IMG/VR virus record: IMGVR_UViG_3300025896_001356
Coordinates: 1-64,000 of that record
DNA from: a virus
Length of the DNA stretch: 64,000 bases
Reading direction: 5' to 3' (one strand)
Below the pieces are notes generated by a model that searched no databases, was not told the origin of the DNA, and saw nothing but the letters and a program-made list of their open reading frames with translations. Below, piece after piece: positions 1,274-57,676 of the stretch. A program made the position numbers and the translations under genes. The first letter of the stretch is position 1; every line of letters begins with the position of its first letter.

Positions 1274-2932
1274 TTGCCAATGAATATATTTGAAAAAGCA
1301 TTACAAAAACAAACCCCAATACCAGTTGCAAAAAAAGAAATCAAGTTAAGCCCGCGTAAGAATTACGGGTATACTGAATACTTTCAAAAAGCAGAGGTTA
1401 TGCGAGATCGCCTCGGAGAAGTTAGCACCAGCATGTGCCTGGCCAAGTGGTTGCAAGTTAGTATCAATTTGGCCAATGGAACTACGCAAAGTTGTTACCA
1501 TCCGCCAGTACACGCAATTCCACTATTAGAGTTACAGGCCAACCCCAGCGCATTACATAATACAAAATTTAAGAAAGCTGAACGAGCATTGATGCTGGAT
1601 GGCAAACGGCCAAGTGGCTGCGACTATTGCTGGAAGGTCGAAGATGCAGTAACAGAATATGATTCGAGTCATCTATCCGATCGTCATTATAAGTCAAGCG
1701 AGTTTTGGGCAGAACCTTATCTCGAAGAAGTAGTAAGCCAGCCAGCAGACTTTAATATCGTCCCTCGCTACGTTGAAGTAAATTTTAATCAAGCATGCAA
1801 TTTTAAGTGCATGTATTGCAGCCCGCATATTAGTTCAGCTTGGCAAGATGAGATTGAAGAACACGGCCCTTACAAATTAGAGCATACTGAACACAATAAT
1901 CTAAAATCATTGAAAGCTGCTGGGTATATGCCCATTGTTGCAGCCAGTAAAGATAATCCATATGTAACAGCATTTTGGAAATGGTGGCCAACAATTTATC
2001 GCAACTTGCGGGTATTCCGTATGACCGGTGGTGAGCCATTGATGGATAAGAATACCTTTAAGGTACTTGACTATGTAAATGAAAATCCGCACGGACAGTT
2101 GGAACTCAGTATAACCAGCAATATGTGCCCGCCTGATCAAAAGCTATTGGACAAGTTTATCAAACAAGTACAGGCACTTGAAGTAATTCGCACATACGAA
2201 GATAAAGACAACTTTAATGAGTTCTCAGGCAACAACTGGTATGTTGACAAAGGCTTCAAGCACTTTTGGTTATATGTAAGCGTAGACTCTGTTGGTGCGC
2301 AGGCAGAGTACATGCGTACAGGTCTTGACTACAATCGCATGATGGATAATGTACGAAGGTTTCTAAACGAAACACGGTATACTACTGTTAGCTTTATCAA
2401 TACATTCAACATTCTGTCCATTCCAGGTCTGAAGCAGTATTTGCAAATGGTATTGGATTTGCGTAAAGAGTTTGGCAGTGATGCACAGACAGAATTTGAA
2501 ATTGCTCCAGTTTCAACAGAACATGAAATCGCAAACGGCATTGAGCATAAGCAATATAAACAGAAAAAGTTCCAGCGTATATTTTTGGATATACCGTTAC
2601 TAAAGTTCCCATCCTGGTTTGATTCACAGAATGCAGGGCAGTGGGGAATAGATATTGTAGAAGATTGCGTTAAGTTTATGGAAGAAAATGTGCAAGCGAA
2701 GGATTATCATCTAACGTTCGAAGGCTTTAAACCGCACGAGATCCTTAAACTAAAACGCAATTTGACTATTATGAAAGAAACTGCGGCAATTGAAACTCTT
2801 GATGCAAATAAGCGCAAGTTTGCACAGTTTATCGAAGAATACGATCATCGTAGAGACACCAAGTTTGAAACAGTATTTCCCGAGATGGTGGAATACTACG
2901 ACGAGTGTAAGTCGTTAAATAACAGATATTAA
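1274..2932 (+). CDS. N-terminal twitch-domain radical SAM protein #1 (type A)
   Basis: N-terminal CLAKW..SCYHPP..CDYCW; rSAM motif CNFKCMYC; TGGEPL. Confidence 0.9.
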   Translation: MPMNIFEKALQKQTPIPVAKKEIKLSPRKNYGYTEYFQKAEVMRDRLGEVSTSMCLAKWLQVSINLANGTTQSCYHPPVHAIPLLELQANPSALHNTKFKKAERALMLDGKRPSGCDYCWKVEDAVTEYDSSHLSDRHYKSSEFWAEPYLEEVVSQPADFNIVPRYVEVNFNQACNFKCMYCSPHISSAWQDEIEEHGPYKLEHTEHNNLKSLKAAGYMPIVAASKDNPYVTAFWKWWPTIYRNLRVFRMTGGEPLMDKNTFKVLDYVNENPHGQLELSITSNMCPPDQKLLDKFIKQVQALEVIRTYEDKDNFNEFSGNNWYVDKGFKHFWLYVSVDSVGAQAEYMRTGLDYNRMMDNVRRFLNETRYTTVSFINTFNILSIPGLKQYLQMVLDLRKEFGSDAQTEFEIAPVSTEHEIANGIEHKQYKQKKFQRIFLDIPLLKFPSWFDSQNAGQWGIDIVEDCVKFMEENVQAKDYHLTFEGFKPHEILKLKRNLTIMKETAAIETLDANKRKFAQFIEEYDHRRDTKFETVFPEMVEYYDECKSLNNRY

Positions 2933-2945
2933 AAACAGGAATACT

Positions 2946-4481
2946 ATGCCAAAAAAACATAACGAAACATTTGCCCAATATAAAATTAGAATGGTTGACT
3001 CAACAAGCGATAGCTTTTGTGCAGCCAAGTGGCTCAACGCCACAATCTGGTTAGGCAATGGACAAACAACCAGCTGCCACCATCCATTGGGACATCAGAT
3101 TGATGCAGCTGAATTAGAAACTAACCCATCTGCAATTCACAATACTCCGCATAAGAAACTTATGCGCAAGATGATGCAAGAAGGTACACGTCCACAAGAG
3201 TGCGAGTACTGCTGGAAGATTGAAGATATTGGCCGTGAAAACATCAGCGATCGTGTTTACAAGACAGCCGTGTTCAAAGACGAAGATGTTATTGCAGCGG
3301 CAACTACACACTGGCAACATGACACAATGCTAAAGACATTGGAAGTATCGTTTGATCGTACTTGTAATTTCTCTTGCTCATACTGCAACCCATCGTTCAG
3401 TACCAGCTGGGTAAAGGACATCAAGAAGTTTGGCCCATATCGCAACATCAATGGTGATTCGCGTAGCCACTTCATCAATGCTGCTGACCATGCAATTCCT
3501 ATTGCAGATGAAACTAATCCGTACATCAAAGCATTTTGGCGCTGGTGGGATGAAGGACTATCTGACAGCTTAGATGAGATTCGTATCACAGGCGGCGAGC
3601 CACTTATGGCCCCAGGTGTATGGAAGCTGATGGATTGGTTCAAGAACAATCAAGAACGTTCTACTCGTCCAGACGGCAGCGTATTACGTTATGCCATCAA
3701 CAGTAACCTAGTGCCCAAAGATGACCTAATGGACAAGTTCATTGAGATGAGTAAGTTTGTGCCGCACATGGAAGTATACACCAGTAATGAAAGCGTTGGC
3801 GCACACAGCGAATACATTCGCGATGGTATGGTCTACAGCAAGTGGAAAGAGAATCTACATCGCTTGCACACAGAAGGCAATATTAAAAAGACACACATGA
3901 TGATGACCATCAACAGTTTGTGTCTTGCAAGTATTGTTGAATTCATGGACGAGATCTTAGAGTTTAAGCGCGAACACAAGACTGTATATCCCACAATGAG
4001 CTTGAACATTTTACGATTCCCGTCGTTCCAATCATGTGCTATGTTGCCAACCAGCATTCGTCAACTATACAAGAACAAGTTACAGACATGGTTAGATGAT
4101 CAGATTGCCCGGGATGAAAAAGTTGACTTTATGGGCAATGGCAACATGTGGCCTATCCTAACTCCAATTGAACGTGAACAGGTACAGCGCCTGATTGACT
4201 ATCTTGATGTTATTAAAACTCCGCACAAGAACGTTAAGGACATGGCACAGCAACACTTGGACTTTAAAAACTTCTATACACAATACGATGTGCGCCGTGG
4301 TAAAGACTTCTGTGCCACATTCCCCGAAGAGTTTGTAAACTGGTACAACAGTATTGAAACACCAGTACCGACACGTGACGAAATCCTGGCTGGGACTTAT
4401 AGCGATGAAACCGGAGGCATTCCCGATCATCCACCAGAAGATCCAAGTAAGGAAGAATTCTTTAACCCGGATCTACAATGA
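2946..4481 (+). CDS. N-terminal twitch-domain radical SAM protein #2 (type A)
   Basis: FCAAKW..SCHHP..CEYCW; CNFSCSYC; TGGEPL. Confidence 0.9.
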   Translation: MPKKHNETFAQYKIRMVDSTSDSFCAAKWLNATIWLGNGQTTSCHHPLGHQIDAAELETNPSAIHNTPHKKLMRKMMQEGTRPQECEYCWKIEDIGRENISDRVYKTAVFKDEDVIAAATTHWQHDTMLKTLEVSFDRTCNFSCSYCNPSFSTSWVKDIKKFGPYRNINGDSRSHFINAADHAIPIADETNPYIKAFWRWWDEGLSDSLDEIRITGGEPLMAPGVWKLMDWFKNNQERSTRPDGSVLRYAINSNLVPKDDLMDKFIEMSKFVPHMEVYTSNESVGAHSEYIRDGMVYSKWKENLHRLHTEGNIKKTHMMMTINSLCLASIVEFMDEILEFKREHKTVYPTMSLNILRFPSFQSCAMLPTSIRQLYKNKLQTWLDDQIARDEKVDFMGNGNMWPILTPIEREQVQRLIDYLDVIKTPHKNVKDMAQQHLDFKNFYTQYDVRRGKDFCATFPEEFVNWYNSIETPVPTRDEILAGTYSDETGGIPDHPPEDPSKEEFFNPDLQ

Positions 4482-5869
4482 GCAAAATAATCCCAATCTG
4501 GGGTGATAATGCTCGTGTACATGCAGATAGTCCTAATAAGACATTCTGCATGGCGCCCTGGCGCCACACTTACATTAGCCCACAAAGCGAACGCAGAATG
4601 TGTTGCGCAAGCCGTGAGGAACACTCATTCCAAAAGCAATACATCGATGCTACCAACGACAAAGCCTACGGCGAAGTTTCTGACAGCAAGACTGCATTAG
4701 CAGATTACAATCCAGTTTCTTTAAAAGAACATTGGAACAGTGATTACATGAAAGACATTCGCGTTAAGCTGATGGCTGGCGAAACTATTCCACAGTGTGA
4801 CGTATGCAACAATAATTTGCTTATGGAAGGTAGTTACCGCGGCTGGTTCACAGGTGTGCTATTCCGTGATCAAATTGAAGAAGCTTTCGCTAAAACTGAC
4901 GAGACTGGTTACACCACAATGGAGCCAGTTAGCTTTGACTATCGCTTCAGTAACCTATGCAACTTCAAATGCCGTATGTGTGGCGAACAGTTAAGCAGTA
5001 GCTGGGAAGTCGAAAAGAAAGTACACAAGCTCTGGACTCCAAAAGATCAACCGTTTATGGTGCCTGAAATTAAGAGTGCAATGCAAGACTTTCAAACTAC
5101 AGTGGTAGAACCAGAGTTTAAGGATGCAGTTACTCGTGGTATCATTGAGGAAATGTATTGGGTAGGCGGCGAGCCATTGATGTACGATATCCATTGGTGG
5201 ACACTTGAAGAAATGCTTCGTAATGGCAGTGCTGACAAGTGCTATATGCGTTATAACAGCAATCTAAGTCGTGTGCAGTTTGGAAATAAAAATCTGTTTG
5301 ATTACCTTCCCAAGTACAAAGACTGGATGATGTGCGCAAGTATAGACGGCACAGGTGACATTGTGGAATACATTCGTACAGGTATCAACTGGAACGAATG
5401 GCTTGCTAACTTCAAAGAAGGTGTCGGCTTACCAGGCGGGCAAGATAAGATGAAGTTAGATCTTACTATTACTGCCCCGGGTATGTTTTCTCTACGGGAC
5501 TTGTTTGATCTGAGTTTAGAACTCAATGTAGAGATCATTACTAAGATTACGTTTGCATTTCATGCTGACATTATGTGGACGCCAATGAGCTGGCCGCGTC
5601 ATATCTTAAATCGTCATATTGAAGAATTGATTGCATACATGAGACCATTGGCAGGATCAAAGCAACAAAGTCTTATCACAGCATTAGAGTCAATGCGTGA
5701 TAGTAGACAAACACACAAAGAAGCGTATCCAGATACATTTGCTACAGCAGCTAAGAATGGTAAAGGATGGGTTACGCAGTTAGAAACAATCCGCAAGGAT
5801 GTTAAAACAACTATGTCTTCTATCTACTCTGCTGATCCAGAGTTGCAGGCCTGGTGGGATAACATATGA
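4478..5869 (+). CDS. N-terminal twitch-domain radical SAM protein #3 (type B)
   Basis: FCMAPW..MCC..CDVC; CNFKCRMC; VGGEPL. Confidence 0.9.
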   Translation: MSKIIPIWGDNARVHADSPNKTFCMAPWRHTYISPQSERRMCCASREEHSFQKQYIDATNDKAYGEVSDSKTALADYNPVSLKEHWNSDYMKDIRVKLMAGETIPQCDVCNNNLLMEGSYRGWFTGVLFRDQIEEAFAKTDETGYTTMEPVSFDYRFSNLCNFKCRMCGEQLSSSWEVEKKVHKLWTPKDQPFMVPEIKSAMQDFQTTVVEPEFKDAVTRGIIEEMYWVGGEPLMYDIHWWTLEEMLRNGSADKCYMRYNSNLSRVQFGNKNLFDYLPKYKDWMMCASIDGTGDIVEYIRTGINWNEWLANFKEGVGLPGGQDKMKLDLTITAPGMFSLRDLFDLSLELNVEIITKITFAFHADIMWTPMSWPRHILNRHIEELIAYMRPLAGSKQQSLITALESMRDSRQTHKEAYPDTFATAAKNGKGWVTQLETIRKDVKTTMSSIYSADPELQAWWDNI

Positions 5870-7056
5870 GCAAGACATTATGTGTCTTGCCATGGATGCA
5901 CTTGGCAAGTCACCCCAATGGTGGCCAAAGCCTATGCTGCCGTAGCAATCATACAGATGCAGTCAGCTGGGCAATGAAACCTGGCACTACACTTCCTCAG
6001 ACATTTGAGGATGCTACATTGCTCGAGATGTCAAACAGCGAAACATTTGTAAGAGTGCGTGAGCAGATGATTGCTGGCGAACAGCCTGTAGAATGCGAAG
6101 GCTGCTGGAAGGATGAAGCAGCAGGTATTCCAAGCAAGCGAGAATATGAAAACCAACGTTGGCAACATATCATTCCCGAGCTTGAGCAAACAGCAGTACT
6201 AAGCAAACCAAACTATCGTTATGTGGAACTACGATTGGGCAATGTGTGCAACAATGCCTGCGTAACTTGCAATAGCTTTAGCAGCAGTAAATGGTATGCA
6301 GACGAAGTTAAGATCTCTAAGGACTTGCCTTGGTTTAAGTTGCGACCAATGGAAAACTTTAAGTGGCATGATCGCCCGGCGTTTTACGAAGAGCTTGCAA
6401 CATTAAGCAATGATGTAGAAGAAATATATATCAACGGTGGTGAGCCAACGCTTATCAAAGCACACTTTGGTTACCTTGAAAGTCTTATTAAGAGCGGTCA
6501 AGCTGCTAACGTACATCTTGTTTATAGTTTAAACATGATGGACATTCCTGACAAGCTAACAGCATTATGGGAACACTTTAAACGTGTCACTGTAAATTGT
6601 AGCGTGGACGATATTGGTGAACGCAATTTTTATATTCGTTGGCCAAGCGTATGGGAAGATACAGTTCGTAGTATAAGGAAATTAGATTCAATACACACAG
6701 TCGAGTGGCACGTGACGCAAACTGTAAGCATCTATAATATCTTTAGTGTAGATGAACTTGACGCATGGCTACGTAATAACTTTGACAAGTCAACTACACA
6801 TAATTATGTACTGTATCCCGAACATCTAAGTTTAGCTGCAATACCCAACAATGTCAAAGATCAATTGCGATGGAAGTATCAAAATTCGTTTAACGAAGAT
6901 AAACGCAACGAGCTGATGGCAAAGTTAGACATGCCGTATCGTCCAGAGCTAACTATACAAGCGAAGGAGTTTGTTGAAGCTCTTGATCGCAGCCGTAATT
7001 TAGATTATAAAAATTACGTACCTGAATTAGGAAAGATATTAAATGGAACAAGTTGA
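5866..7056 (+). CDS. N-terminal twitch-domain radical SAM protein #4 (type B)
   Basis: LCVLPWMH..LCC..CEGCW; CNNACVTC; NGGEPT. Confidence 0.9.
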   Translation: MSKTLCVLPWMHLASHPNGGQSLCCRSNHTDAVSWAMKPGTTLPQTFEDATLLEMSNSETFVRVREQMIAGEQPVECEGCWKDEAAGIPSKREYENQRWQHIIPELEQTAVLSKPNYRYVELRLGNVCNNACVTCNSFSSSKWYADEVKISKDLPWFKLRPMENFKWHDRPAFYEELATLSNDVEEIYINGGEPTLIKAHFGYLESLIKSGQAANVHLVYSLNMMDIPDKLTALWEHFKRVTVNCSVDDIGERNFYIRWPSVWEDTVRSIRKLDSIHTVEWHVTQTVSIYNIFSVDELDAWLRNNFDKSTTHNYVLYPEHLSLAAIPNNVKDQLRWKYQNSFNEDKRNELMAKLDMPYRPELTIQAKEFVEALDRSRNLDYKNYVPELGKILNGTS

Positions 7057-7654
7057 TAAAAATGATTACAACCAGGAGCCAATTTCGTGGCAACAGTATC
7101 TTGATGAGATTGGACCACTCTTCAGATTCTGTACAAATGCAACAGTATTAGAAATTGGGCCATATTATGGACATCATACTAAACTCATTGAGACTTTTGG
7201 TCCCGAAGCAATTACGTTAGTTGAAAACAATGCAGATGCAGTTAACGTATTACGTCAAAGATTCGAACATGAGATTATACATGCTGACATAAACGATTTT
7301 CTTAAAGTAAATCGACATTTTGATGTTGTAGTTTGTTGCGGAGTATTGTATCATTTGCATTCGCCTGTGCATCTATTGGAGTTAATTGTTAACATGTCAA
7401 CCCCAAAAATTGTAATATTAGAATCAGTTAATGTGTCAACTATTGAAATGACTGTTGAGCCTGACAATAACCCGGGTATGCGATACATTGACGAAAGTTG
7501 GAAATCAGCGAAGTGTAATATGGTGTTGCCATTTAATACAATTATTAGCATTATGAAAACACTTGGGTACAAACTTGCAGACCACCATATGCAAGGTTAT
7601 CCTAACATTATATCTAAACAAAACGTACAATCAGCAGTTTTTATACAACAATGA
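7043..7654 (+). CDS. class I SAM-dependent methyltransferase
   Basis: VLEIGPYYG (motif I), ITLVE, FDVVVCCGVLYHL. Confidence 0.85.
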   Translation: MEQVDKNDYNQEPISWQQYLDEIGPLFRFCTNATVLEIGPYYGHHTKLIETFGPEAITLVENNADAVNVLRQRFEHEIIHADINDFLKVNRHFDVVVCCGVLYHLHSPVHLLELIVNMSTPKIVILESVNVSTIEMTVEPDNNPGMRYIDESWKSAKCNMVLPFNTIISIMKTLGYKLADHHMQGYPNIISKQNVQSAVFIQQ

Positions 7655-8940
7655 CAATTACACAAATACCAATTCAGATTGATCATAGCTTCTGTGCAGC
7701 AAAGTGGCTTATGGTCACCATGCACTTTGGCATGGGCGAGAATCACTCTTGTTATCATCCTCCTATCCATCGTTGGGATTTAGATGATGTCAAAGCTAAC
7801 CCTGGTGCATTGCACAACAGCAAGCACAAGATTAAACAGCGTGAAATGATGCTGACTGGCATCCGTCCCAAGGAATGCAACTACTGCTGGAACATGGAAG
7901 ACATTGATTCCACAGCAGTAAGTGATCGTAAACGTTTTACCAACGAAACCTGGGCAATTGAACGTCGCCAAGAGATATTATCTGCGCCTGCTGACGCCTA
8001 CATTGGTCCAGCACACTTAGAAATATCATTTGCCAACGTATGCAACTTTGCCTGCGCCTACTGTAGTCCAGGTCAAAGTAGTACATGGGAAACGGAAATC
8101 CGTAAACACGGTTCATACCCAATTGAAGATGCGACTGTGCATAAGGATAAAATGCACGATATGATTCCTGAAGATAATAATCCGTACATTGATGCATTTT
8201 GGGAATGGTTGCCGTCGATCTATTCTGGCCTACGTTATCTACGTATTACAGGTGGCGAACCTTTGGCTACTCGTAACTTTATGAAGTTGTTGGACTACGT
8301 TGCAGAGAATCATAACCCTGATTTAACGTTAGTGGTAAACACTAACTTATGTGTGCCTGAAAAGAACTTAGATTTATTCTTTACCAAAGCAACTGCATTA
8401 CTTGAAGCCAAGACTATTAAAGGGCTTGAAGTTTATACCAGTATGGATACATGGGGACCACAAGCCGAGTACATTCGTGACGGATTAGATATTGAGAAGT
8501 GGGAAGCAACTGTTCGTAAGGTCAGTACCACGTTCGGAGTTCCGATTCGAGTCATGGTCACATTTGGATTGCTTAGTGTGTTTAACTTCCAAACCTTTGT
8601 TGAAAAGGTCATAGAAATGCGCTCACAAGGCATAGATATCATGTTTAATTGCTCCAGACTTGTAGATCCTAAGCAGTTTGACCTTAGAATATTGCCTGAC
8701 GAATGCGATCACTACTTTGATGCAGTAAATAATTTTATTGTGGATAATAATGACATTGTTAAGGTAGAAACTGAAACATGGGCAATGGTTTATCAGTTCT
8801 GGAAAGCCAGACACACTACAATGACAGTGATCGAACGTGATCATCGACGGGATCAGTTTGCCAAGTTCACAGCCGAATACGACAAACGTAGAACATTGAA
8901 CTTCAGCGCAACATTTCCGGAGTTGGCAGGATGGATTTAA
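7651..8940 (+). CDS. N-terminal twitch-domain radical SAM protein #5 (type A)
   Basis: FCAAKW..SCYHPP..CNYCW; CNFACAYC; TGGEPL. Confidence 0.9.
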   Translation: MTITQIPIQIDHSFCAAKWLMVTMHFGMGENHSCYHPPIHRWDLDDVKANPGALHNSKHKIKQREMMLTGIRPKECNYCWNMEDIDSTAVSDRKRFTNETWAIERRQEILSAPADAYIGPAHLEISFANVCNFACAYCSPGQSSTWETEIRKHGSYPIEDATVHKDKMHDMIPEDNNPYIDAFWEWLPSIYSGLRYLRITGGEPLATRNFMKLLDYVAENHNPDLTLVVNTNLCVPEKNLDLFFTKATALLEAKTIKGLEVYTSMDTWGPQAEYIRDGLDIEKWEATVRKVSTTFGVPIRVMVTFGLLSVFNFQTFVEKVIEMRSQGIDIMFNCSRLVDPKQFDLRILPDECDHYFDAVNNFIVDNNDIVKVETETWAMVYQFWKARHTTMTVIERDHRRDQFAKFTAEYDKRRTLNFSATFPELAGWI

Positions 8941-10178
8941 TTCATAATATGAATCAAGCACTTGAAGAATTAAAAAAATCAACAAGTCAAACTTTGTGTT
9001 TAGCAAAGTTTCACGAAGCTACTATCTGGCTATATAGTGGCCGCATTGCTAGTTGCCATCATACTCCTTTAGTACCATTGGGTGATAGTGTACTCACATT
9101 CTTTAATCCAACTGAAAAACGTAAGCAACAAGAATCAATGCTAGCTGGCAACAAGCCGTCTGAATGTTCATACTGCTGGAAATTAGAAGACAAGAATCTT
9201 ATCAGTGATAGATATAAAAAATCAATCAGCTTCAAATCTACACTGACTGCTGTTGAGTATTTGGATCCTACTTATAATTTTAAACCTAAGGCATTAGAAT
9301 TATCATTTCAGAATCTTTGCAATTTGGCCTGTAGCTATTGCAGTGCAGAATATAGTTCTAAGTGGGCAGATGATCTAACAAAAAACGGTAATTATACTAA
9401 GATTACAACTGACAAACGCTTGCATTATCAACGCGGAGTAGACAATCATACCCCAGTTGATATGACTTTATTTTGGGATTGGTTTAATACAGTCGCTGAT
9501 GGAATTGAATCGCTTCGTATTACTGGCGGCGAACCATTGCTCCATGAAGAAACATTTAAAATGCTTGATATCATGCAGGAAATCAATCCAAACATTGAGT
9601 TTGTAGTACATACAAATCTTTGTCAAAAACCTGTAATTATTAGTCGATTTGTTGATAAAATATCAAAGTTCAATAATGTGCGTGTAAACATAAGCAATGA
9701 AAGTGCAGGCGACGTAGCTGAATTTATACGTGATGGAATGAATTACAATGAATGGTTAGCGAATCTTAAAGTACTATCAAATAGCAACGCCAACCTAAGT
9801 GTCAGTACTACTATCACTGCATTAGCATTAACAAGTCTAGATCAACTATACACTGATGTCATTGCGATTCGCAATGCGGCTAACCAAAAAGTATACATTT
9901 CGATTAACTTTGCTACATATCCAGAATTCCAATCAATTAGTTGTCTGACTCAGGATGAATTGCAGTTTTATTATAATAAGTACATCGTGTTCTTTGATAA
10001 CATCAAGGATGATCTATTAGAGATTGAACACAGCCACATAATAAGACTATTAAAAATGATGCAATCGGATGAAGATGTAAATCAGCCAGTGCTTCGGAAA
10101 GATTTGAATTCTTTCTTTGAACAGTACTCTGTCAGACGTAATAAGGTTAACCTAATAGGAACAATTGGATTGAAATGA
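8931..10178 (+). CDS. N-terminal twitch-domain radical SAM protein #6 (type A)
   Basis: LCLAKF..SCHH..CSYCW; CNLACSYC; TGGEPL. Confidence 0.9.
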   Translation: MDLIHNMNQALEELKKSTSQTLCLAKFHEATIWLYSGRIASCHHTPLVPLGDSVLTFFNPTEKRKQQESMLAGNKPSECSYCWKLEDKNLISDRYKKSISFKSTLTAVEYLDPTYNFKPKALELSFQNLCNLACSYCSAEYSSKWADDLTKNGNYTKITTDKRLHYQRGVDNHTPVDMTLFWDWFNTVADGIESLRITGGEPLLHEETFKMLDIMQEINPNIEFVVHTNLCQKPVIISRFVDKISKFNNVRVNISNESAGDVAEFIRDGMNYNEWLANLKVLSNSNANLSVSTTITALALTSLDQLYTDVIAIRNAANQKVYISINFATYPEFQSISCLTQDELQFYYNKYIVFFDNIKDDLLEIEHSHIIRLLKMMQSDEDVNQPVLRKDLNSFFEQYSVRRNKVNLIGTIGLK

Positions 10179-11383
10179 ATAATATACCAGTTAACAAGAT
10201 ATGCAGTATGCCTTGGGTTGGGTTTAGCAATGATCCCGACGGTAAAGTGCGGCCGTGCTGTTTGTACAAAGGTCATATATCAGAGAATGATAAACCAATG
10301 TATGTGCAGCAGCACAGTGTAGATGACATTTTTAAAAGCAAATACATGCGTGACTTGCGCGATGATTTTAGAAATGGTAATCAGCCTTCGGCCTGTTCCA
10401 CCTGCTGGGTAGATGAAAAAAATGGATTTAAAAGCAAACGATTGATTGCCAATGAAATCTGGAAACATCATCAAATTGACTATATGGAAGAACCAGTTCT
10501 TCCAGTTGAATTTCAGATGATTATAAACAATTCCTGCAATCTAAAATGTCGGTCTTGCACGCCTAGCCATAGTACCCAATGGCAAATTGAAAATGTTAAA
10601 ATTAATGGAAGTTCAGGTTACAATATGCCGCATGGCCAAGCAGGCGATGACGATAGTGTATTATGGACAAAGCGTCACGAATGGTATGCAAGTGTGCAAC
10701 GATTGGAAATAGTAGGCGGCGAACCTTTTTATGTTAAACAATGGCACCAAATATTTGAAGAACTAATCGAATTAGGTTATGCAAAGAATATCGTACTGAA
10801 TCTGAGTTCGAATTGTACATTGTTTTTTGGTGGCTTAGTTGAAAGGATGACTCAAAATTTCAAATCTGTTGGAATTGGATTAAGTATAGATGGCACTGGC
10901 TCCGAATACGAATATCTGCGTCATCCAGGTAATTGGGACACTGTCTACGCTAACATGAAAAAGTATCATGCCTTAATGGAAAAGTACCCCAATTTACATG
11001 TACAAGTGAGTTATACAATCGGCTGGTTAAATGCACTGGATCTAACCATTATGCACGAACTAGTACGAACAGACTTTCCTAAGTTTAGGATATGGAATAA
11101 CATCATTCATTTTCCCGAGCATATGGCAATTTGTTCAGCGTCAGACGATATAAAACAGGAAATAATGGACAATTGGGACGCATATAAATGGGATCAACAT
11201 TATACATCAATCATTGACGGCGTCAAAACTTTTATGAATAGTAAATCAATCAGCACACAACAATTTAAAAGTTATGTTGATATTCTGCTCAGCAGAGATG
11301 CCATCCGAAACGAAAACTTATATGAATCCTTTCCGAAACTTGTTAAATTTTTACCAACACAATCTGATAACTCTGACTCATAA
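10175..11383 (+). CDS. N-terminal twitch-domain radical SAM protein #7 (type B)
   Basis: ICSMPW..PCC..CSTCW; CNLKCRSC; VGGEPF. Confidence 0.9.
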   Translation: MNNIPVNKICSMPWVGFSNDPDGKVRPCCLYKGHISENDKPMYVQQHSVDDIFKSKYMRDLRDDFRNGNQPSACSTCWVDEKNGFKSKRLIANEIWKHHQIDYMEEPVLPVEFQMIINNSCNLKCRSCTPSHSTQWQIENVKINGSSGYNMPHGQAGDDDSVLWTKRHEWYASVQRLEIVGGEPFYVKQWHQIFEELIELGYAKNIVLNLSSNCTLFFGGLVERMTQNFKSVGIGLSIDGTGSEYEYLRHPGNWDTVYANMKKYHALMEKYPNLHVQVSYTIGWLNALDLTIMHELVRTDFPKFRIWNNIIHFPEHMAICSASDDIKQEIMDNWDAYKWDQHYTSIIDGVKTFMNSKSISTQQFKSYVDILLSRDAIRNENLYESFPKLVKFLPTQSDNSDS

Positions 11384-11419
11384 TATGCAAGTACATAAAT
11401 TAAAACAACAAGGCATATT

Positions 11420-12757
11420 ATGAGCGAGCAGTCATTTAATCCAACTGATCTTGCAGCAAGCAGCGATACATTTTGTATCTTGCCCTGGATGCACCAGTAC
11501 ATTGGCACACGCGGAGATATTAAACCATGCTGTGCGTTTGAGCATACGTTAGAAATTGGAAATTTAAAAAAAGAAACATTGGCTGATACTTGGAACAATG
11601 ACAAAACCAAAAATGTTCGTCTCGAATTGCTCAATGGAAAAATTCCCAAAGGTTGCGAGATCTGCGACCGCAAAGGAAAAGGTATGGCATTGGCCGACGC
11701 AGCCAACAGTTGGTTTTATGACACCAATGCAGAATCTGGTGTCAAATTTGATATTATGCAACAGCTAGCATCAACTCAGTCTGACGGTACAGTGGCCGAC
11801 CACAAGTTATTTTATATGGATACACGTTTTAATAATCTTTGTAATTTATCGTGCCGTACATGCGGTCCGCACTTTAGTACAACTTGGGCAGCCGAACGTA
11901 AAAAGATTGCCATCTTGACAAATATGCCTTTGCGAGATGACGGAATTGATACAGGTTTGCAATTTGCTGGAAAAACAGTAAATGATGCTTACGAACAATT
12001 GTTGCCACATTTTCCCAATCTCACACGCATTTATTTCGCAGGCGGCGAACCAATGATGCAAGTGGAGCACTACAACACGCTTAAAGAATTAATAAGGACT
12101 GGCCGCACTGACGTTGAGCTTTGGTACAATGCAAATTTCAGTAGATTGACCTTAGGTAAAGATGATGCCATTGAACTTTGGAAAAATTTTAAATCTGTCA
12201 GAATGATGGCTAGCCTGGATGGGTCATATTTAAAAGGGGAGTATTGGCGTAATGGCTTACATTGGAGCGATGCAATACGTCATCGCGAGAAAATGCTAGC
12301 TGAGGCGCCACATGTTGAATTTTATGTTTCCTTTGTGGTAAGTTGGCCAAATATTTTTAATCTATTAGAATTTCACAAAGAATGGTTCGAATTAGGTTAT
12401 ATTAGTAGTGTTGAACACTTTAGTCTGAATCTATTAGAAGGGCCAGCAATGTATAGTTTGCAAAATTTGCCCGAATGGAAAAAAATAAAAATTAAAGCAG
12501 CAATAACCAACCACATTGTATGGATTAATAGCAATTCATTAAATGGCAATTCTACTATTGCATTTGCACTAAACAGATTCGTCGAAAGTATGATGCAGCC
12601 AGCAGTTGATCTGCAGAAAAGTCTGACTAAGTTCGCTATAGAAACCAAAATGCTGGATAACGTACGAGATCAGAATTTTTGGGAAGTATATCCTGAGCAT
12701 TTAGATCTTAAAGAATATATGCAACAAGAATTTAACATAGTATGGGAAAATCTATAA
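11420..12757 (+). CDS. N-terminal twitch-domain radical SAM protein #8 (type B)
   Basis: FCILPWMH..PCC..CEIC; CNLSCRTC; AGGEPM. Confidence 0.9.
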   Translation: MSEQSFNPTDLAASSDTFCILPWMHQYIGTRGDIKPCCAFEHTLEIGNLKKETLADTWNNDKTKNVRLELLNGKIPKGCEICDRKGKGMALADAANSWFYDTNAESGVKFDIMQQLASTQSDGTVADHKLFYMDTRFNNLCNLSCRTCGPHFSTTWAAERKKIAILTNMPLRDDGIDTGLQFAGKTVNDAYEQLLPHFPNLTRIYFAGGEPMMQVEHYNTLKELIRTGRTDVELWYNANFSRLTLGKDDAIELWKNFKSVRMMASLDGSYLKGEYWRNGLHWSDAIRHREKMLAEAPHVEFYVSFVVSWPNIFNLLEFHKEWFELGYISSVEHFSLNLLEGPAMYSLQNLPEWKKIKIKAAITNHIVWINSNSLNGNSTIAFALNRFVESMMQPAVDLQKSLTKFAIETKMLDNVRDQNFWEVYPEHLDLKEYMQQEFNIVWENL

Positions 12758-12806
12758 TGGGTGAAGCAATAAAATGTGCGTTCCTCATTGTAAATGCAGC
12801 TTTTGA

Positions 12807-13763
12807 ATGAGTGAATATATAAAATACTTGAGTTTTTTAAAAAATCCAAAGTCTTTGGAGGAACTCTGGCTGGTCCAACACTGGCTTGAAATTGCACCAG
12901 CCAGTTCTAGCAATAATATGCAGAAATTTTTTATCAGGCCAGCAAATCAGCATGAAATTGATAACTCGGCTCAAGCCTATGCCAATGGTCGTACTACAAA
13001 ATCGTCGCCTCCGGAATATAAGGTTGATCGTTACGGATTTAGAATAGCGTCAGGTTTCGCAGGATTAGACACAATTGATGATTCAGACCACTTGCATATT
13101 GGATTTTTTGGTTGCTCTTTCACATATGGTATCGGATTAGAGTCTGAAGAAATTTGGATAGAAGGGGTAGCCAGTGCATTATCTGTACAACTCAATAGGC
13201 CTGTAACAATTTATAATTTTGGCGAAGGCGGTGCCGGAGTACAGAGAATAGCAGATATATTCCGCCAGGTAACACAGTTTAGGAAATTAGACTATGCATT
13301 TTTTTTACTTCCAGATCATCAACGTTACCAGTATCCGGTTATTGTCACAGACCATCAACCAACCACAAGCCCAGTTAAACTTATAAATGTAGTTAATGGA
13401 TTTAATCCAACTCGCATCAGCAATGAACAACAGTACCAGTTAATAACTCGAAATAAATCCATGTCCGAACTCGACGATGTCAACCGACTGATCAATGAAT
13501 TGCAGATCATTGAACTTATTGCCAAGGTAAACAACGTCAAAATATTCTATTCAGCCTGGCGAGCTCCTACTTACGAAATATTGTCAACACACATTGATAA
13601 TAGTGCAATGTTACCATTTTTTGGTTCTTCGCCAGGCACTAGCAGAGACGGAAACTGGACAGATTTTGCTGCCGACGGCAGTCATCCTGGGCCAAAATTA
13701 AATCAACATTGGGTAAATATAGTACAGCAATATTTCATTGAACACAGAAAAGGATTAGATTAA
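12807..13763 (+). CDS. SGNH/GDSL-like hydrolase/acyltransferase
   Basis: FFGCSFTYG (block I Ser), NFGEGGAG (block II), C-terminal DGSHPG (DxxH). Confidence 0.7.
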   Translation: MSEYIKYLSFLKNPKSLEELWLVQHWLEIAPASSSNNMQKFFIRPANQHEIDNSAQAYANGRTTKSSPPEYKVDRYGFRIASGFAGLDTIDDSDHLHIGFFGCSFTYGIGLESEEIWIEGVASALSVQLNRPVTIYNFGEGGAGVQRIADIFRQVTQFRKLDYAFFLLPDHQRYQYPVIVTDHQPTTSPVKLINVVNGFNPTRISNEQQYQLITRNKSMSELDDVNRLINELQIIELIAKVNNVKIFYSAWRAPTYEILSTHIDNSAMLPFFGSSPGTSRDGNWTDFAADGSHPGPKLNQHWVNIVQQYFIEHRKGLD

Positions 13764-14968
13764 TGAGCCAGATGTACGGTAAAGTAACCCGGTTACACAT
13801 AGAATTATCAAGCAGGTGCAATGCCAGCTGCCCGTGTTGCAGCAGAAATTTTTGCGGCGGCCCAGTTGTGCCTGACCTAGATCTCACTGAGCTATCGCTT
13901 GCTGATATAAAACAAATGATTCCAAATGAGTTAGCGGCACAATTACATGCTATTAATTTTTGTGGCAACATAGGCGACCCGGGTATGGCAACAGATTTAA
14001 TAGAAATATTAGAGCATTTTCGAGACCAGTCGCCAAACATTATACTGCAAGTTAGAACCAATGGCGGCATGCGTTCAGCAGAATTTTGGACCAAATTGGG
14101 TAACTTTTTTAAAAATCACCAAGCCAACAATATGGATCCAATTCAGGCCGATGGCGGCCATTTGTTTGGTAGATCAAACGTCGTTTTCAGTGTCGACGGA
14201 CTTGAAGAAACTAATCATATATACCGCCGCGGGGTAATTTGGGAAAAATTAATCAGAAACATGCAAGCATATAGCGATACTGGTGCAACTGCAACTTGGG
14301 AATGGTTATTGTTTGATCATAATAAACACCAAATTGACGAAGCACATGCATTGGCCAAGAAATTAAATTTTGATCTTTTATTCAAGAATCCAATGGGGTT
14401 CACTGAACATGATGGTATTTTCAAACCAATACCAGTGTATAGCAAAGCTGGCAAGTACGAGTATAGTATTTGGCCAAATGGCTACTCCGGTGAAAAAATA
14501 GTCGGCGCAGATAGTTCGTTTGATTTTGTCAATCATTACATTACTCAAAAACAAAATAAAAACATACCCGTTATTAACGAATTTAGTAAAAGTTTAGAAA
14601 ACAATACAATAACATGTCGGTCAACTGCTAAATTGGATCAGGGTGAAGTGTACATTTCTGCAGGTGGCTATATGTTACCTTGCTGCTATCTAGGAAGTGT
14701 GTTTGGTCAGAATCAATCATCATATTCACGCTACCAGTTCAATTCACTGATGCAAGACTATGGATTAGAGAAATTCAATCTGAGAACCCGGCCAATGACG
14801 GATATTTTAAAAGGGCCAGAATTTTCCAAATTTTTCTTAGATGGTTGGTCAGCAGATACAATCAAAAACGGTAAATTATTATATTGTATAGAAACATGCG
14901 GACAATCAGAATTAAATTCTATTGATAAACTATATCCTAATAAAATTATCAGTAAAGATTTAACATGA
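13763..14968 (+). CDS. radical SAM protein #9 with C-terminal twitch/SPASM-like domain
   Basis: CNASCPCC near the N-terminus, FCGNIGDP, FSVDG; C-terminal C..YISAGGYMLPCC..CIETC. Confidence 0.88.
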   Translation: MSQMYGKVTRLHIELSSRCNASCPCCSRNFCGGPVVPDLDLTELSLADIKQMIPNELAAQLHAINFCGNIGDPGMATDLIEILEHFRDQSPNIILQVRTNGGMRSAEFWTKLGNFFKNHQANNMDPIQADGGHLFGRSNVVFSVDGLEETNHIYRRGVIWEKLIRNMQAYSDTGATATWEWLLFDHNKHQIDEAHALAKKLNFDLLFKNPMGFTEHDGIFKPIPVYSKAGKYEYSIWPNGYSGEKIVGADSSFDFVNHYITQKQNKNIPVINEFSKSLENNTITCRSTAKLDQGEVYISAGGYMLPCCYLGSVFGQNQSSYSRYQFNSLMQDYGLEKFNLRTRPMTDILKGPEFSKFFLDGWSADTIKNGKLLYCIETCGQSELNSIDKLYPNKIISKDLT

Positions 14969-15014: not shown

Positions 15015-15116
15015 ATGTTTAAATGGATAAAAAATTTATATTACAAGATCAAAACAGAATTGCGCTATCGGAAGCGCATCAAAGAAATGAAAAAACGTGA
15101 TCCGTTCATCTACTAA
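15015..15116 (+). CDS. 33-aa basic micropeptide ending in DPFIY (SxtK/DUF5989-reminiscent; not in the ORF track)
   Basis: MFKWIKNLYYKIKTELRYRKRIKEMKKRDPFIY*, preceded by a CAGGAG RBS. Confidence 0.65.
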   Translation: MFKWIKNLYYKIKTELRYRKRIKEMKKRDPFIY

Positions 15117-15123
15117 GTAGAAC

Positions 15124-15828
15124 ATGAAAATTGGAATATTTGGTGATAGCTTTGCAGTATACTACCCAGAAAAGGCGCCCAGAACGGCCTGGGCTACTGT
15201 CTTAGAAGATAAATTTAAATGGGATGTTACTAACTACGCCTGGGGGGCAACAAGTTTATTTTGGACTTATACGCAATTATTAAATAATATAAACGACGTT
15301 GATATTGTCATAATGAGTATTACTCAGCAAGGTAGATTATACAGTCATGATCCAAAAGCGTGTACTGGTCTGTCTAATTATGGATCAGTTAATGCTCGGC
15401 TTGCTGGATTGAGTAGTAGTCATGCAGATTATGAAATTCTCAATGCCGCACTGCAATATTTTGTGCATTTGTCCAATGATGATTTTAATAGGTATGTACA
15501 TGTCAAAATCATTGACGACATAAAGAAACTCTGCAACTTGCAGGGTAAACGATTGATTTTAATTCCCGGATTTGATGAAGATATAAACTCTCAAGATATA
15601 TTTCAGTCTGCACTAATAAATGTGTCGGTCACTGAGTGCTGGGCGCATTTTAAGCAGCCGTACGTCATTGAAGCGCCTACACGTAATTGTCATATGACAG
15701 ATGCAAACAATAGTATACTAGCTCAACTGTTGGATCAAATATTACGTGGCAATCGAACAGAGGTCAAACTCACTGATTTTAATTTTGAAAAAATATCAGA
15801 TTTATCTTCCCAATGGATTTTACCATAA
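15124..15828 (+). CDS. SGNH/GDSL-like protein
   Basis: IGIFGDSF, NYAWGATS, C-terminal RNCHMT..N. Confidence 0.7.
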   Translation: MKIGIFGDSFAVYYPEKAPRTAWATVLEDKFKWDVTNYAWGATSLFWTYTQLLNNINDVDIVIMSITQQGRLYSHDPKACTGLSNYGSVNARLAGLSSSHADYEILNAALQYFVHLSNDDFNRYVHVKIIDDIKKLCNLQGKRLILIPGFDEDINSQDIFQSALINVSVTECWAHFKQPYVIEAPTRNCHMTDANNSILAQLLDQILRGNRTEVKLTDFNFEKISDLSSQWILP

Positions 15829-17285
15829 TGATATTAGGTATTACAGCACAAAATCATGACGCCAGTTTAGCACTAATAGATGGTGATCGTATTGTATGGG
15901 CAGCACACGCAGAACGCTACAGCAGAGTTAAAAACGATCCGCTATTAAATGCAGCCATGCTGGCAGATATGCGATGCTACGGCGAGCCAACTGAATTAGT
16001 ATGGTTTGAAAAGCCCGTACAAAAGGATTTACGACGATTGATTTCCGGACAACGTCCTTGGCATGTTAGTCCTAAAGATCAATTACGTGCAGTGGGATTA
16101 GATCACTTGCCTATCGACTATGTTGGCCATCATCAAAGCCATGCTGCCGCAGGATACTATACAAGTGGGTTCAAAGACGCTGCAATCTTAGTAGTAGATG
16201 CAATCGGCGAATGGGACACAGTTAGTATTTGGCATGCTGAAGGTGCCGATATGAAGCGCAAGTGGTCAAAGAAGTATCCTAACAGCGTAGGATTGTTTTA
16301 CACAGCAATGACACAGTGGTTAGGATTAAAGCCCAATGAAGAAGAATACATCCTAATGGGCATGGCTGCTTATGGAAAGCCTCGACACGCAGAAGAACTA
16401 TTAGAAACGTTCTTTACCAAGTGGGCGCCACCCGACTTTAAGCTAAAGCACAATCTACATCGTGGTTGCGCTTGGTGGACTCCTAAAGACTCTACTGCAA
16501 CCAAGTTTGATATTGCTGCCAGTGTACAGTACATAATTGAAATGTATTTGACAGAGACAATTGATTGGATGTCTGGAGAAATTGATTCAGATAATTTAGT
16601 CTTTATGGGCGGCGTTGCATTAAATTGTGTGGCAAATGCATTAATTGCACGAGAAAACTATTTTAATAATTTCTGGATTATGCCTAATCCCGGTGACAGC
16701 GGCAGTGCAATTGGTGCAGTTGCAGCCCATACTCGACGGCATTTAAAATGGGAAACCATTTACCTAGGCACTGATATCAAACAAGATGTTGATGTCAAGT
16801 CAATTGTTAAAGAACTCAAAAAGGGCAATGTGGTAGCAGTAGCAAATGGTCGTGCTGAGTTTGGCCCACGTTCATTAGGTAATCGTAGTTTACTGTGCGA
16901 TCCACGTGGTGCAGATGCCAAGCCCCGCATGAATACTATTAAAAAGCGTGAACAATTTCGTCCATTTGCGCCGGCTGTGTTAGCAGAACACGCAGACACA
17001 TATTTTGACATGCCTGTTGCAGAAAGCCCTTATATGCAGTTTGTTGCAGAATGTAGAACGCCAGACACATTGCCGGGTATTTGTCACGTAGATAACTCTA
17101 GTAGAGTGCAAACAGTTACCGAGCAAGATAATCCTGTGTTTCGTAGTATATTAGAAGCATGGGAAACTGCAACAGGTTGCCCTATATTAATGAATACCAG
17201 TTTAAACATTCGTGGCGAACCGCTAGTAAATACCTGGGCAGACGCACTGCGCTTTCAAACTTTACACAAGGTAAATGTATATTAA
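15828..17285 (+). CDS. NodU/CmcH-family O-carbamoyltransferase
   Basis: ILGI..HDAS, HHQSHAA, DAIGE, GGVALNC, EFGPRSLGNRSLL, KKREQFRPFAP, NTSLN. Start placed at MILGI (TAATG coupling). Confidence 0.95.
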   Translation: MILGITAQNHDASLALIDGDRIVWAAHAERYSRVKNDPLLNAAMLADMRCYGEPTELVWFEKPVQKDLRRLISGQRPWHVSPKDQLRAVGLDHLPIDYVGHHQSHAAAGYYTSGFKDAAILVVDAIGEWDTVSIWHAEGADMKRKWSKKYPNSVGLFYTAMTQWLGLKPNEEEYILMGMAAYGKPRHAEELLETFFTKWAPPDFKLKHNLHRGCAWWTPKDSTATKFDIAASVQYIIEMYLTETIDWMSGEIDSDNLVFMGGVALNCVANALIARENYFNNFWIMPNPGDSGSAIGAVAAHTRRHLKWETIYLGTDIKQDVDVKSIVKELKKGNVVAVANGRAEFGPRSLGNRSLLCDPRGADAKPRMNTIKKREQFRPFAPAVLAEHADTYFDMPVAESPYMQFVAECRTPDTLPGICHVDNSSRVQTVTEQDNPVFRSILEAWETATGCPILMNTSLNIRGEPLVNTWADALRFQTLHKVNVY

Positions 17286-18047
17286 ATGGTTAAACGATTA
17301 GTAATTGTAGGGGATAGTTTTTGTGCTGACCGCAAAATAGCCACCGACTGGCCGGTTAAACTTGCAAATATGCTCGGACGCCAACTGCGCGGTGAAGGGC
17401 GTGGTGGACGGGCGTGGTGGACGACACGAAGCTGGATTTATAAAAATATTGGTCAAATTGACCAAGACACAATTTTAATAGTGTGTCATACTTCTCCGTC
17501 TAGATTACCAAATCAGAATCACTATCCAATCAGTACTGGTATTTTACATAGCGAAGTTTCTGCGCCATCAAATGATTTACGGCTAGTTGATCCCAATGGT
17601 GAACTATTTAATTTGGCCAAAAATTTCTATCTATCAGACTTATATGTGCATGAGTTTTACGAATGGGCAGGAAGGTGCTGGTTGCATGAAGTAAACAACC
17701 TGGCACAACGAGTACATAAACTTATTCATTTGCCTGGTCCAGACGCTATTCATCATTCGTTTGATACCCAATATAGTAATTCTATTAGAATAGAACCATC
17801 ATTGGAATGCAAAGCACTAGTTGACTTGTCAATGAAAGAATTAAAACAAAATGGTAGAAAGTTTTTTGGACCCGACGCACGACATAACCATCTAACTGAA
17901 CACAACAATATCAAATTGGCCGAAGCCTTGTATACTATAATTAAATCAGAATCTGCTCCGACTAATCCAATGCATTTTGATAATCTCAATGAGTGGTCCT
18001 TTACAAATGACGATTTTAAAGTCAGAATGGATTTTGAAAACTACTAA
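17286..18047 (+). CDS. SGNH/GDSL-like protein
   Basis: IVGDSFC, GRGGRA, C-terminal RHNHLT..N. Paralogous in layout to 15124..15828. Confidence 0.7.
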   Translation: MVKRLVIVGDSFCADRKIATDWPVKLANMLGRQLRGEGRGGRAWWTTRSWIYKNIGQIDQDTILIVCHTSPSRLPNQNHYPISTGILHSEVSAPSNDLRLVDPNGELFNLAKNFYLSDLYVHEFYEWAGRCWLHEVNNLAQRVHKLIHLPGPDAIHHSFDTQYSNSIRIEPSLECKALVDLSMKELKQNGRKFFGPDARHNHLTEHNNIKLAEALYTIIKSESAPTNPMHFDNLNEWSFTNDDFKVRMDFENY

Positions 18048-18910: not shown

Positions 18911-18940
18911 AAACAGGGCACATTGGTTGCCCTGTTTTCT
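18911..18940 (+). terminator. intrinsic terminator
   Basis: AAACAGGGCA-cattggt-TGCCCTGTTT stem ending in a T run. Confidence 0.7.
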
Positions 18941-18968
18941 TGACAACGTATAAGTATTTTGCTATAAT
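18940..18968 (+). promoter_or_regulatory. sigma70-type promoter
   Basis: TTGACA-17 nt-TATAAT just upstream of 18975. Confidence 0.85.
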
Positions 18969-22563: not shown

Positions 22564-22986
22564 TTGAGTGATTCAAACGTATACATTGTAAGCCCTCCAA
22601 CTTTATACATGCCAGCAGGCGGGTTGGCATTTTGCTTAATAAGTAATGATCCTACATGGCAAGATTCAATTATCAACTATTTAGAAGCAAACATTCAGAA
22701 TCAATTAACATTCTATGCAACTGAAACAAGCACCAAGGATCCTAAAGCATGGGTATGGTATTGGCATATAGTTGACAACTGCGGCATGATCTTTGTTGAT
22801 CTTTCGAGCAGTACAGAGCATGAAGTTAGAATGGCGATGGCAATGGCCAAATTGGATATGCCAGTTATCTTTCATGTTAGGCCTGGCAACGACGAGTTTG
22901 TGGCATTGCTTAATGCAGTAGATATTCCACACTTCGAAGATATGGAACATTTGGCAACGTTATTGGAGAACGGCCTTGGTGGATAA
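22564..22986 (+). CDS. hypothetical protein
   Basis: 140-aa ORF with TTG start, packed directly before clpX. Confidence 0.65.
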
Positions 22987-33427: not shown

Positions 33428-34000
33428 ATGATAATTAAATGTATGTTAACATATCTTACTTTGGCCACTTCAAATCTTATCCGCCACCATATTCCAGTAT
33501 ATCCAGATTGGCCAAAAACTGGAGTCAAATATCTTAACACAGTCGAGCTTTGCCAAAACCCAAGTGCATTTGATCTAAGTGTGCAATGGTTTAAAGCAGT
33601 CGCCGAAACATGTAATGCACAAGATATTTTTGCTGCAGATGCTCGTGGGTTCATTTGGGGTGCACCAACTGCAAACCATTGTAAACTACCGTTGCATGTA
33701 GTAAGAAAACCAGGAAAACTTCCGGGAAATGTGTGGAGCCAGACTTACGAACTCGAGTATGGTACAGATACATTGGAGTTGCTGTCATCTACTCCAGTAG
33801 GCAATCGTCAGATACTAATTGTAGATGATGTACTAGCAACTGGAGGCACAGCAGATGCAATTTGCAAATTGTTGCATAACAATTTAAATATTCCGTACAC
33901 GTCAATGAGCGTGGCTGTATTAGTCAATCTAACATTTTTATCTGGTCAACAAATGTTAGAAGAAAAAGGTATTCAAGTATTTGGATTATTAAATGAGTGA
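33428..34000 (+). CDS. apt: adenine phosphoribosyltransferase
   Basis: PDWPKTGV, DARGFIWG, VRKPGKLP, YELEYGTD, IVDDVLATGGT PRPP motif. Confidence 0.95.
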   Translation: MIIKCMLTYLTLATSNLIRHHIPVYPDWPKTGVKYLNTVELCQNPSAFDLSVQWFKAVAETCNAQDIFAADARGFIWGAPTANHCKLPLHVVRKPGKLPGNVWSQTYELEYGTDTLELLSSTPVGNRQILIVDDVLATGGTADAICKLLHNNLNIPYTSMSVAVLVNLTFLSGQQMLEEKGIQVFGLLNE

Positions 34001-57675: not shown

Positions 57676-57676
57676 T

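Follow-up and report, generated by a model that had tools for sequence, protein, structure and literature searches.

A conserved operon of nine radical SAM enzymes in a giant tailed phage, eight of them anciently diverged N-terminal-twitch paralogues, as a possible carbohydrate-tailoring pathway

The window analysed here (64,000 nucleotides, positions 1–64,000 of the 77,160-bp IMG/VR contig IMGVR_UViG_3300025896_001356) carries near its start a run of nine genes for radical S-adenosylmethionine (SAM) enzymes, hereafter R1–R9, which spans positions 1274–14968; all genes of this island described below lie on the forward (+) strand. Eight of the nine (R1–R8) match the NCBIfam model NF033640 (N_Twi_rSAM; 398 model positions, curated cut-off 170 bits) over essentially its whole length, with scores of 256–334 bits (E 7e-76 to 1e-99) and alignments running from model positions 1–2 to 385–398, and none of the eight contains an internal stop. 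From these and the comparative data set out below, we judge this to be a real, conserved and selected nine-enzyme tailoring operon built from a catalogued but uncharacterised family.

The eight N_Twi_rSAM copies share a Cys-rich twitch domain placed before the radical SAM core, as in the NF033640 family at large, and divide into two types by the spacing of their auxiliary Cys. Type A copies carry the motif C-x18-C[YH]H...CxxC and comprise R1 (1274–2932, 279 bits; the ATG at 1280 is a possible alternative as the actual start), R2 (2946–4481, 294 bits), R5 (7651–8940, 284 bits), and R6 (8931–10178, 256 bits); type B copies carry C-x17-CC...CxxC and comprise R3 (4478–5869, 297 bits), R4 (5866–7056, 326 bits), R7 (10175–11383, 289 bits), and R8 (11420–12757, 334 bits). 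The N-terminal region is also matched by Pfam SPASM in R3 (residues 24–111), R7 (E 1.5e-7), and R8 (E 4.6e-10), the matches falling at residues 10–111 across the three. Alignment of the eight copies leaves 22 invariant columns, which include the CxxxCxxC triad, GGEP, and four N-terminal Cys (C55, C74, C116, and C119 in R1 numbering, all ahead of CxxxCxxC) that are the predicted ligands of the auxiliary cluster. Adjacent genes overlap by 1–16 nt or are separated by no more than 49 nt. An earlier interpretation, made from the letters of the window alone (the sequence-only reading), had described eight overlapping or closely spaced open reading frames (ORFs) of N-terminal-twitch type with both auxiliary motifs, and had proposed a profile search; that search now places all eight well above the curated cut-off, with cluster ligands, CxxxCxxC, and GGEP intact in every copy. 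Its statement that the family has no assigned function also stands: the NCBIfam name is a generic one, and a search of the literature returned no description of N_Twi_rSAM function or of such arrays. The present locus goes beyond the catalogue entry NF033640 in that a single phage operon brings together eight paralogues that diverged long ago and represent both motif types.

The ninth enzyme, R9 (13763–14968; Radical_SAM E 3e-4, SPASM E 1.2e-3), has its CxxxCxxC at residues 19–26 and a Cys cluster at the C-terminus. Pfam SPASM scores below threshold here (19.5 vs 21.5 bits), yet the C-terminal Cys residues 285, 307, 308, 375, and 379 are conserved in 90–95% of 21 family members, in keeping with the C-terminal auxiliary domain proposed for this protein. 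Sequence comparison of R9 with the PDB gave generic cluster-loop matches only. Its family accompanies the arrays more often than any other, occurring in 15 of the 22 phage sources compared. Between R4 and R5 sits a class I SAM methyltransferase gene (7043–7654; Methyltransf_23 E 2.4e-9, NodS E 5.4e-7), which the sequence-only reading had likewise recognised as embedded in the run; six related arrays contain no orthologue of it.

The gene neighbourhood recurs across phages, as a survey proposed in that reading brought out: related IMG/VR contigs, one of them 249.6 kb long, hold 8–13 N_Twi_rSAM genes each, and the order R1-R2-R3-R4-R5 is conserved among them. A quick IQ-TREE maximum-likelihood run on 68 proteins puts each of R1–R8 in its own well-supported clade with phage orthologues from the relatives G006, G008, and G009 (and G002); type A is monophyletic (support 99), and all splits between paralogues are older than the phage lineages. 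Copies from G012, a bacterial metagenome-assembled genome (MAG), nest within the R1, R2, R3, and R4 clades (52, 48, 46, and 35% identity, respectively), and the most lineage-specific copy is R7, whose best relatives are 25–33% identical. The ratio of nonsynonymous to synonymous substitution (dN/dS) against G006 is 0.055 for R2, 0.052 for R3, and 0.059 for R5, with synonymous sites near saturation. The tree and these ratios indicate that the paralogues are old, separately maintained, and functional under strong purifying selection. Old, separately kept, and selected copies are what a multi-step pathway predicts, so that these results, with the conserved gene order, support the dedicated multi-step tailoring pathway suggested beforehand. 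If a four-gene module had simply been duplicated, the tree should show it throughout, but it does so only by half: R1 pairs with R5 and R2 with R6, but R3 with R8 and R4 with R7.

A search of GenBank phages for near-identical copies of the island gave no match. Cultured carriers of the family are the Ralstonia phage RsoM2USA, with one type A copy, and the Vibrio phages K566/K567, with four diverged copies; the nearest ESM Atlas clusters are 90–100% viral. Other phage lineages have two more families interleaved with their N_Twi_rSAM genes, a further radical SAM family, F2 (~300–380 aa, with CNYxCSYC, GGEPT, and a Cys-rich C-terminal tail), and a Rossmann-like family, F3 (~200 aa, including RsoM2USA_347); loci with these families are L014 6342–13299, L011 3880–10084, L021 5003–5983, and L022 15614–16753. 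Assignment of F3 as a methyltransferase is unproven, its matches being weak ones to SDR and shikimate dehydrogenase models.

Structure prediction, also suggested earlier for the paralogues, gave a confident AlphaFold2 model of R4 (predicted local distance difference test score, pLDDT, 90), in which a β-hairpin and helices precede the barrel. The core (residues 116–358) most resembles anSME (Z 11.3), BlsE (10.9), SkfB (10.8), and CteB (10.7), followed by MoaA, viperin, and EpeE (Z about 10), identity to these tied matches being 12–17%; the model scores Z 8.7 against both AprD4 and DesII. The predicted fold places N_Twi_rSAM in the SPASM/twitch branch, a position that does not name the substrate. 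Auxiliary clusters with four Cys ligands, as predicted for R1–R8, serve electron transfer rather than substrate binding in BtrN and anSME.

Two groups of characterised enzymes invite comparison. BtrN, NeoN, AprD4, DesII, and BlsE, which work alongside carbamoyl- and methyltransferases in aminoglycoside and nucleoside pathways, share with R1–R8 the partial TIM-barrel radical SAM core and an auxiliary [4Fe-4S] cluster (predicted here); identity to them is 7–16%, however, their auxiliary domain, where present, is C-terminal, and they occur singly rather than in arrays. Matches of R1–R8 to the BlsE profile hidden Markov model (HMM) fall far under its cut-off. The peptide-modifying enzymes anSME, SkfB, CteB, and EpeE provide the best fold matches (Z 10.2–11.3) and have fully Cys-ligated auxiliary clusters, but the N_Twi proteins lack a peptide-recognition domain (no RRE/PqqD-type match, by PqqD search, in any of the nine enzymes), have no precursor gene nearby, and show a permuted domain order.

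The functional unit continues past 14968 to ~18047 or 18847. Downstream of R8 come, in order, G1, R9, a 33-aa ORF, X1, a carbamoyltransferase, and X2. G1 (12807–13763) is an SGNH-like protein with FGCSF near its start and a DGSHPG motif; its own GDSL match is weak and sub-threshold (E 1.4e-3), a G008 homologue of the SGNH-like proteins reaches 25.7 bits against the GDSL cut-off of 23.6, and the G1 family is present in 8 of the 22 phage sources. X1 (15124–15828, N-terminal FGDSF) is SGNH-like by motif and has homologues in G008–G010, and X2 (17286–18047, N-terminal VGDSF) is SGNH-like by motif only; neither gave an HMM match, and X2 has no homologue in the relatives. Between them, the gene at 15813–17285 encodes a NodU/CmcH-type O-carbamoyltransferase (Carbam_trans_C 185 bits, E 9e-55; Carbam_trans_N 159 bits, E 3e-46, the Pfam N-domain model being unmatched over its N-terminal ~95 residues), 33% identical to an enzyme that adjoins an N_Twi_rSAM in the bacterium G012. 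Directly upstream of R1, a membrane-type DUF3307 protein, which may or may not take part in the pathway, is encoded at 890–1249 (PF11750, E 7e-12); G006 and G007, the closest relatives, have this gene at the same position, and in RsoM2USA a DUF3307 gene (ORF187) lies elsewhere in the genome.

The 33-aa ORF (15015–15116) encodes a basic peptide whose KRDPFIY tail is invariant across six phage contigs, and it is a real gene. Unannotated counterparts of 33–47 aa recur in G008, G009, G010, G002, and L012 (loci L032 9185–9289, L033 10048–10152, L041 4865–4969, L036 6923–7066, and L012 12924–13055), and the peptide is absent from G006 and G007, both of which also lack the carbamoyltransferase. Because it tracks the presence of the carbamoyltransferase, the peptide belongs with that enzyme and is not a radical SAM substrate. 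The bacterium G012 has the full carbamoyltransferase–SxtJ–peptide trio beside an N_Twi_rSAM: after the carbamoyltransferase come a 49-aa peptide with the C-terminus APFIYTVF (L049 14569–14718) and then SxtJ. The phage pair resembles the carbamoyltransferase–SxtJ–SxtK (DUF5989) trio of the saxitoxin cluster in combining a NodU/CmcH-type enzyme with a short PFIY-ending peptide, but differs in that the phage peptide is 33 aa long, basic, and devoid of a membrane helix, and in that SxtJ was not seen in the phage. The KRDPFIY peptide has the look of a bacterial SxtK/DUF5989-type peptide stripped of its membrane helix; Pfam does not recognise it as DUF5989/SxtK. A 1001-aa protein that follows the peptide in L012 was considered as a carbamoyltransferase and ruled out.

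A further family adjoins the radical SAM genes in 7 of the 22 phage sources and is not found in the window. Its members (233–327 aa, typified by one of 317 aa) also occur as domains within larger proteins of 530–1357 aa, and in RsoM2USA they flank the radical SAM gene on both sides. The modelled N-domain resembles IspD, MobA, GnT-I, POMGNT1, and cellulose synthases (Z 5.3–6.8), a DxD-like IDGDN motif is present, and two members show weak matches to glycosyltransferase family 2 (GT2) at the DxD region (E about 3–5e-4); searches of Pfam, PHROGs, and PDB sequences found nothing significant for the 317-aa family. The model is suggestive of a GT-A-like, nucleotide-diphospho-sugar-transferase fold. 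One canonical GT2 gene is present in G008, 8 kb beyond its carbamoyltransferase, and the G002 island contains an APH-like kinase and a NodS-like methyltransferase domain. Giant proteins flank the island in G008–G010, those of G008 being 2301 aa (L031 1–7098) and 1310 aa (L032 11638–15570) long; the latter includes a copy of the GT-A-like domain.

Several relatives link the arrays to tail genes. Virus-encoded glycosylation is known from mycobacteriophage capsids and tails and from chlorovirus and mimivirus glycans, and to our knowledge none of these systems uses radical SAM enzymes. Their resemblance to the present arrays lies in the placement of putative sugar-handling genes beside structural genes in G008–G010, G002, and RsoM2USA. 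The genes just upstream of the G008–G010 and G002 arrays are homologous to the tail block of RsoM2USA, one of those in G008 encoding a protein with a fibre-type autoproteolytic chaperone domain. In RsoM2USA itself, the radical SAM gene lies after baseplate, sheath, and structural genes, the products of two of which were found in virions (PMC8504454).

The family extends to bacteria. In the phylum to which a Bacteriovoracaceae MAG belongs, 110 of the 401 genomes sampled have N_Twi_rSAM matches above cut-off, and five bacterial genomes that were inspected hold 7–13 copies each, mostly in clusters of 20–45 kb. The MAG G012, with 17 matches, represents a real bacterium, since it encodes ribosomal protein L2 and has ATP synthase, mfd, and glycolysis genes adjoining its copies. 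Some bacterial copies are 46–52% identical to phage R1–R3, a similarity that hints either at gene exchange of giant phages with bacteria of this phylum or at a host relationship. A profile census of GT2 and carbamoyltransferase genes in the five genomes found 12 of 58 GT2 genes within 5 kb of an N_Twi_rSAM (1.2 expected), with at least one GT2 gene near a copy in each genome; carbamoyltransferase genes did not adjoin the arrays in these five genomes, save for one weak match. A 227-aa protein lying between two N_Twi genes of G011 appeared GT2-like by eye, drew nothing from Pfam, and was not counted. In G012 (contig C3), where radical SAM genes of SPASM, MiaB-like, and N_Twi-like kinds are clustered, L049 7866–8630 lies among them and encodes a 254-aa fusion of a PqqD-like peptide-recognition domain with a Peptidase_S74 intramolecular-chaperone domain.

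We favour, at about even chances, the interpretation that the enzymes of the island edit a carbohydrate-type substrate, be it a glycan or a small molecule that bears a sugar, by radical chemistry in several steps. The data show family membership, intact ligands, conservation, selection, and gene context directly; substrate class, per-copy chemistry, and final target we infer as follows. Each N_Twi_rSAM would bind SAM at the [4Fe-4S] cluster of its CxxxCxxC motif and cleave it to a 5′-deoxyadenosyl radical, which would abstract one specific C–H hydrogen of the substrate; to complete the step, the N-terminal twitch cluster, all of whose ligands are Cys, would accept or donate an electron. Oxidation, epimerisation, deoxygenation, or C–C/C–X bond formation would be likely outcomes, as in BtrN, NeoN, AprD4, DesII, and BlsE, and the eight copies would account for different steps or different positions. 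Decoration of hydroxyl or amino groups would follow, carried out by the methyltransferase, by the three SGNH-like proteins, and by the carbamoyltransferase together with its small peptide. NodU-type carbamoyltransferases, NodS-like methyltransferases, and SGNH-like proteins mostly act on the hydroxyl and amino groups of sugars, and the gene context favours a carbohydrate-type substrate over a nucleotide or peptide. The targets named in the sequence-only reading (virion protein or glycan, host surface polymer, nucleotide) are by this means narrowed, not settled. Since the cassette lies directly behind tail genes in related phages, its product is probably carried on the virus particle. We are more doubtful of a bolder proposal, in which the N_Twi_rSAM paralogues would be radical editors of glycans and a class of their own, every copy applying a different C–H chemistry (epimerisation, oxidation, deoxygenation, or cross-linking) to sugars of a glycan already assembled; the edited glycan would be displayed on the phage particle or, in the case of predatory Bdellovibrionota-type bacteria, on the cell surface, giving phages and bacteria alike a combinatorial diversification of surface sugars without new sugar-nucleotide pathways.

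A number of observations weigh against a carbohydrate substrate. The nearest structures of the R4 core are tied between peptide modifiers (anSME, SkfB, CteB, EpeE) and enzymes of sugars or nucleotides (BlsE, MoaA, viperin). No glycosyltransferase was found on the 77-kb contig or in G006 and G007 (all three being 23–28% complete), and in 10 additional phage contigs no canonical GT2 gene lay near an array. The 317-aa family model has a pLDDT of 55 and is poor past residue 130, and its Z values are middling. Among bacteria, one eight-copy array has the ATP synthase operon on one side, mfd on the other, and no sugar genes alongside, and the binomial P of 2e-9 for the GT2 enrichment is too optimistic, as GT2 genes cluster together; the per-genome result stands despite this self-clustering. 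The PqqD and Peptidase_S74 fusion beside weak N_Twi-like radical SAM genes in G012 and an Asp/Asn β-hydroxylase-like gene within the G006 and G007 islands speak for maturation of a protein or peptide, in which the radical SAM enzymes would introduce cross-links, epimerisations, or side-chain changes into a phage protein (e.g., a tail fibre) or a peptide encoded at a distance. This alternative, which we think unlikely, also draws on the predominance of peptide modifiers in the SPASM/twitch clade, on the presence of anSME, SkfB, CteB, SuiB, and EpeE among the top structural neighbours, and on the tail genes upstream in G008 and RsoM2USA, the fibre-type chaperone protein included. Against it, the N_Twi proteins have no RRE/PqqD domain; the operon contains no precursor peptide, its sole small ORF and only precursor candidate following the carbamoyltransferase rather than the radical SAM genes; known peptide systems usually need one enzyme for many sites, whereas 8–13 separately conserved enzymes are present here; and the GT2 enrichment in bacteria would be left unexplained.

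Nucleotide or DNA hypermodification, by which the array would make modified nucleotides or edit DNA bases or sugars against host defences, is in our view very improbable. Weak HMM matches to MoaA, viperin, QueE, and NrdG, the similar fold scores of viperin and MoaA, and a non-specific nuclease gene after the island can be cited for it, but the HMM matches span the generic SAM-binding core only, the island encodes no DNA transglycosylase, kinase, or base-transfer enzyme, and many bacteria have several chromosomal copies of N_Twi_rSAM genes in the vicinity of GT2 genes. We know of no role in DNA modification for the carbamoyltransferase and SGNH-like partners. We hold out equally little prospect for a lipid or other small molecule, whether an envelope lipid or a secondary metabolite directed at host or competitors, despite the precedent of carbamoyltransferase, SxtJ, and PFIY peptide in the saxitoxin cluster, the APH-like kinase of the G002 island, and the isolation of one bacterial array between housekeeping genes: polyketide, NRPS (non-ribosomal peptide synthetase), terpene, and lipid-synthesis genes were not seen in any island, and the best PDB match of R9, to the tetraether lipid synthase GDGT-MAS (E 1e-3), covers the cluster-binding loop only.

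N_Twi_rSAM has thousands of members and no known reaction, and radical SAM enzymes are rich in new chemistry. That giant phages spend 11–20 kb on 8–13 separately conserved copies under strong selection, and that about a quarter of the genomes sampled in one bacterial phylum have multi-copy sets near glycosyltransferases, argues for a substantial unexplored pathway. The sequence-only reading had presented the island as an undescribed system, which holds for the searchable literature, the nearest item being a passing mention of one marine T4-like genome with 12 radical SAM genes (PMC5332604); it is not unique to the window, however, recurring in related phages and in about a quarter of the sampled genomes of one bacterial phylum. 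Should the carbohydrate pathway that we favour decorate virions, it would be the first virus surface structure built by radical SAM enzymes, with a bearing on host recognition and defence evasion, and the cultured carriers RsoM2USA and K566/K567 make the question directly testable.

The end of the radical SAM unit is marked by a perfect sigma-70 promoter (TTGACA-17-TATAAT with an upstream TG) at 18940–18968, which opens the next unit directly before an AAA_28 ATPase gene at 18975; in a scan for such promoters, the island was not enriched over shuffled sequence. CheckV estimates the contig to be 23% complete, implying a genome of ~330 kb, and its other genes fit a giant tailed phage: they include a clamp loader (51049–51972), a collagen-like tail fibre (61118–63079), and a ClpA/ClpB-like AAA+ ATPase of 768 aa (57584–59890), for which the jumbo phages Phosso, Atu_ph07, and PA5oct provide the best relatives (41–44% identity). 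The phage also encodes a ClpX-like AAA+ ATPase of 407 aa (22976–24199). An adenine phosphoribosyltransferase gene (33428–34000, E 7e-32) overlaps that of a short, 183-aa homologue of methylthioadenosine/S-adenosylhomocysteine (MTA/SAH) nucleosidase (33993–34544, E 1e-8). Together these two enzymes would clear inhibitory 5′-deoxyadenosine and SAH and salvage adenine; the by-products cleared would come from the nine radical SAM enzymes and the methyltransferase, which would tie the pair to the island.

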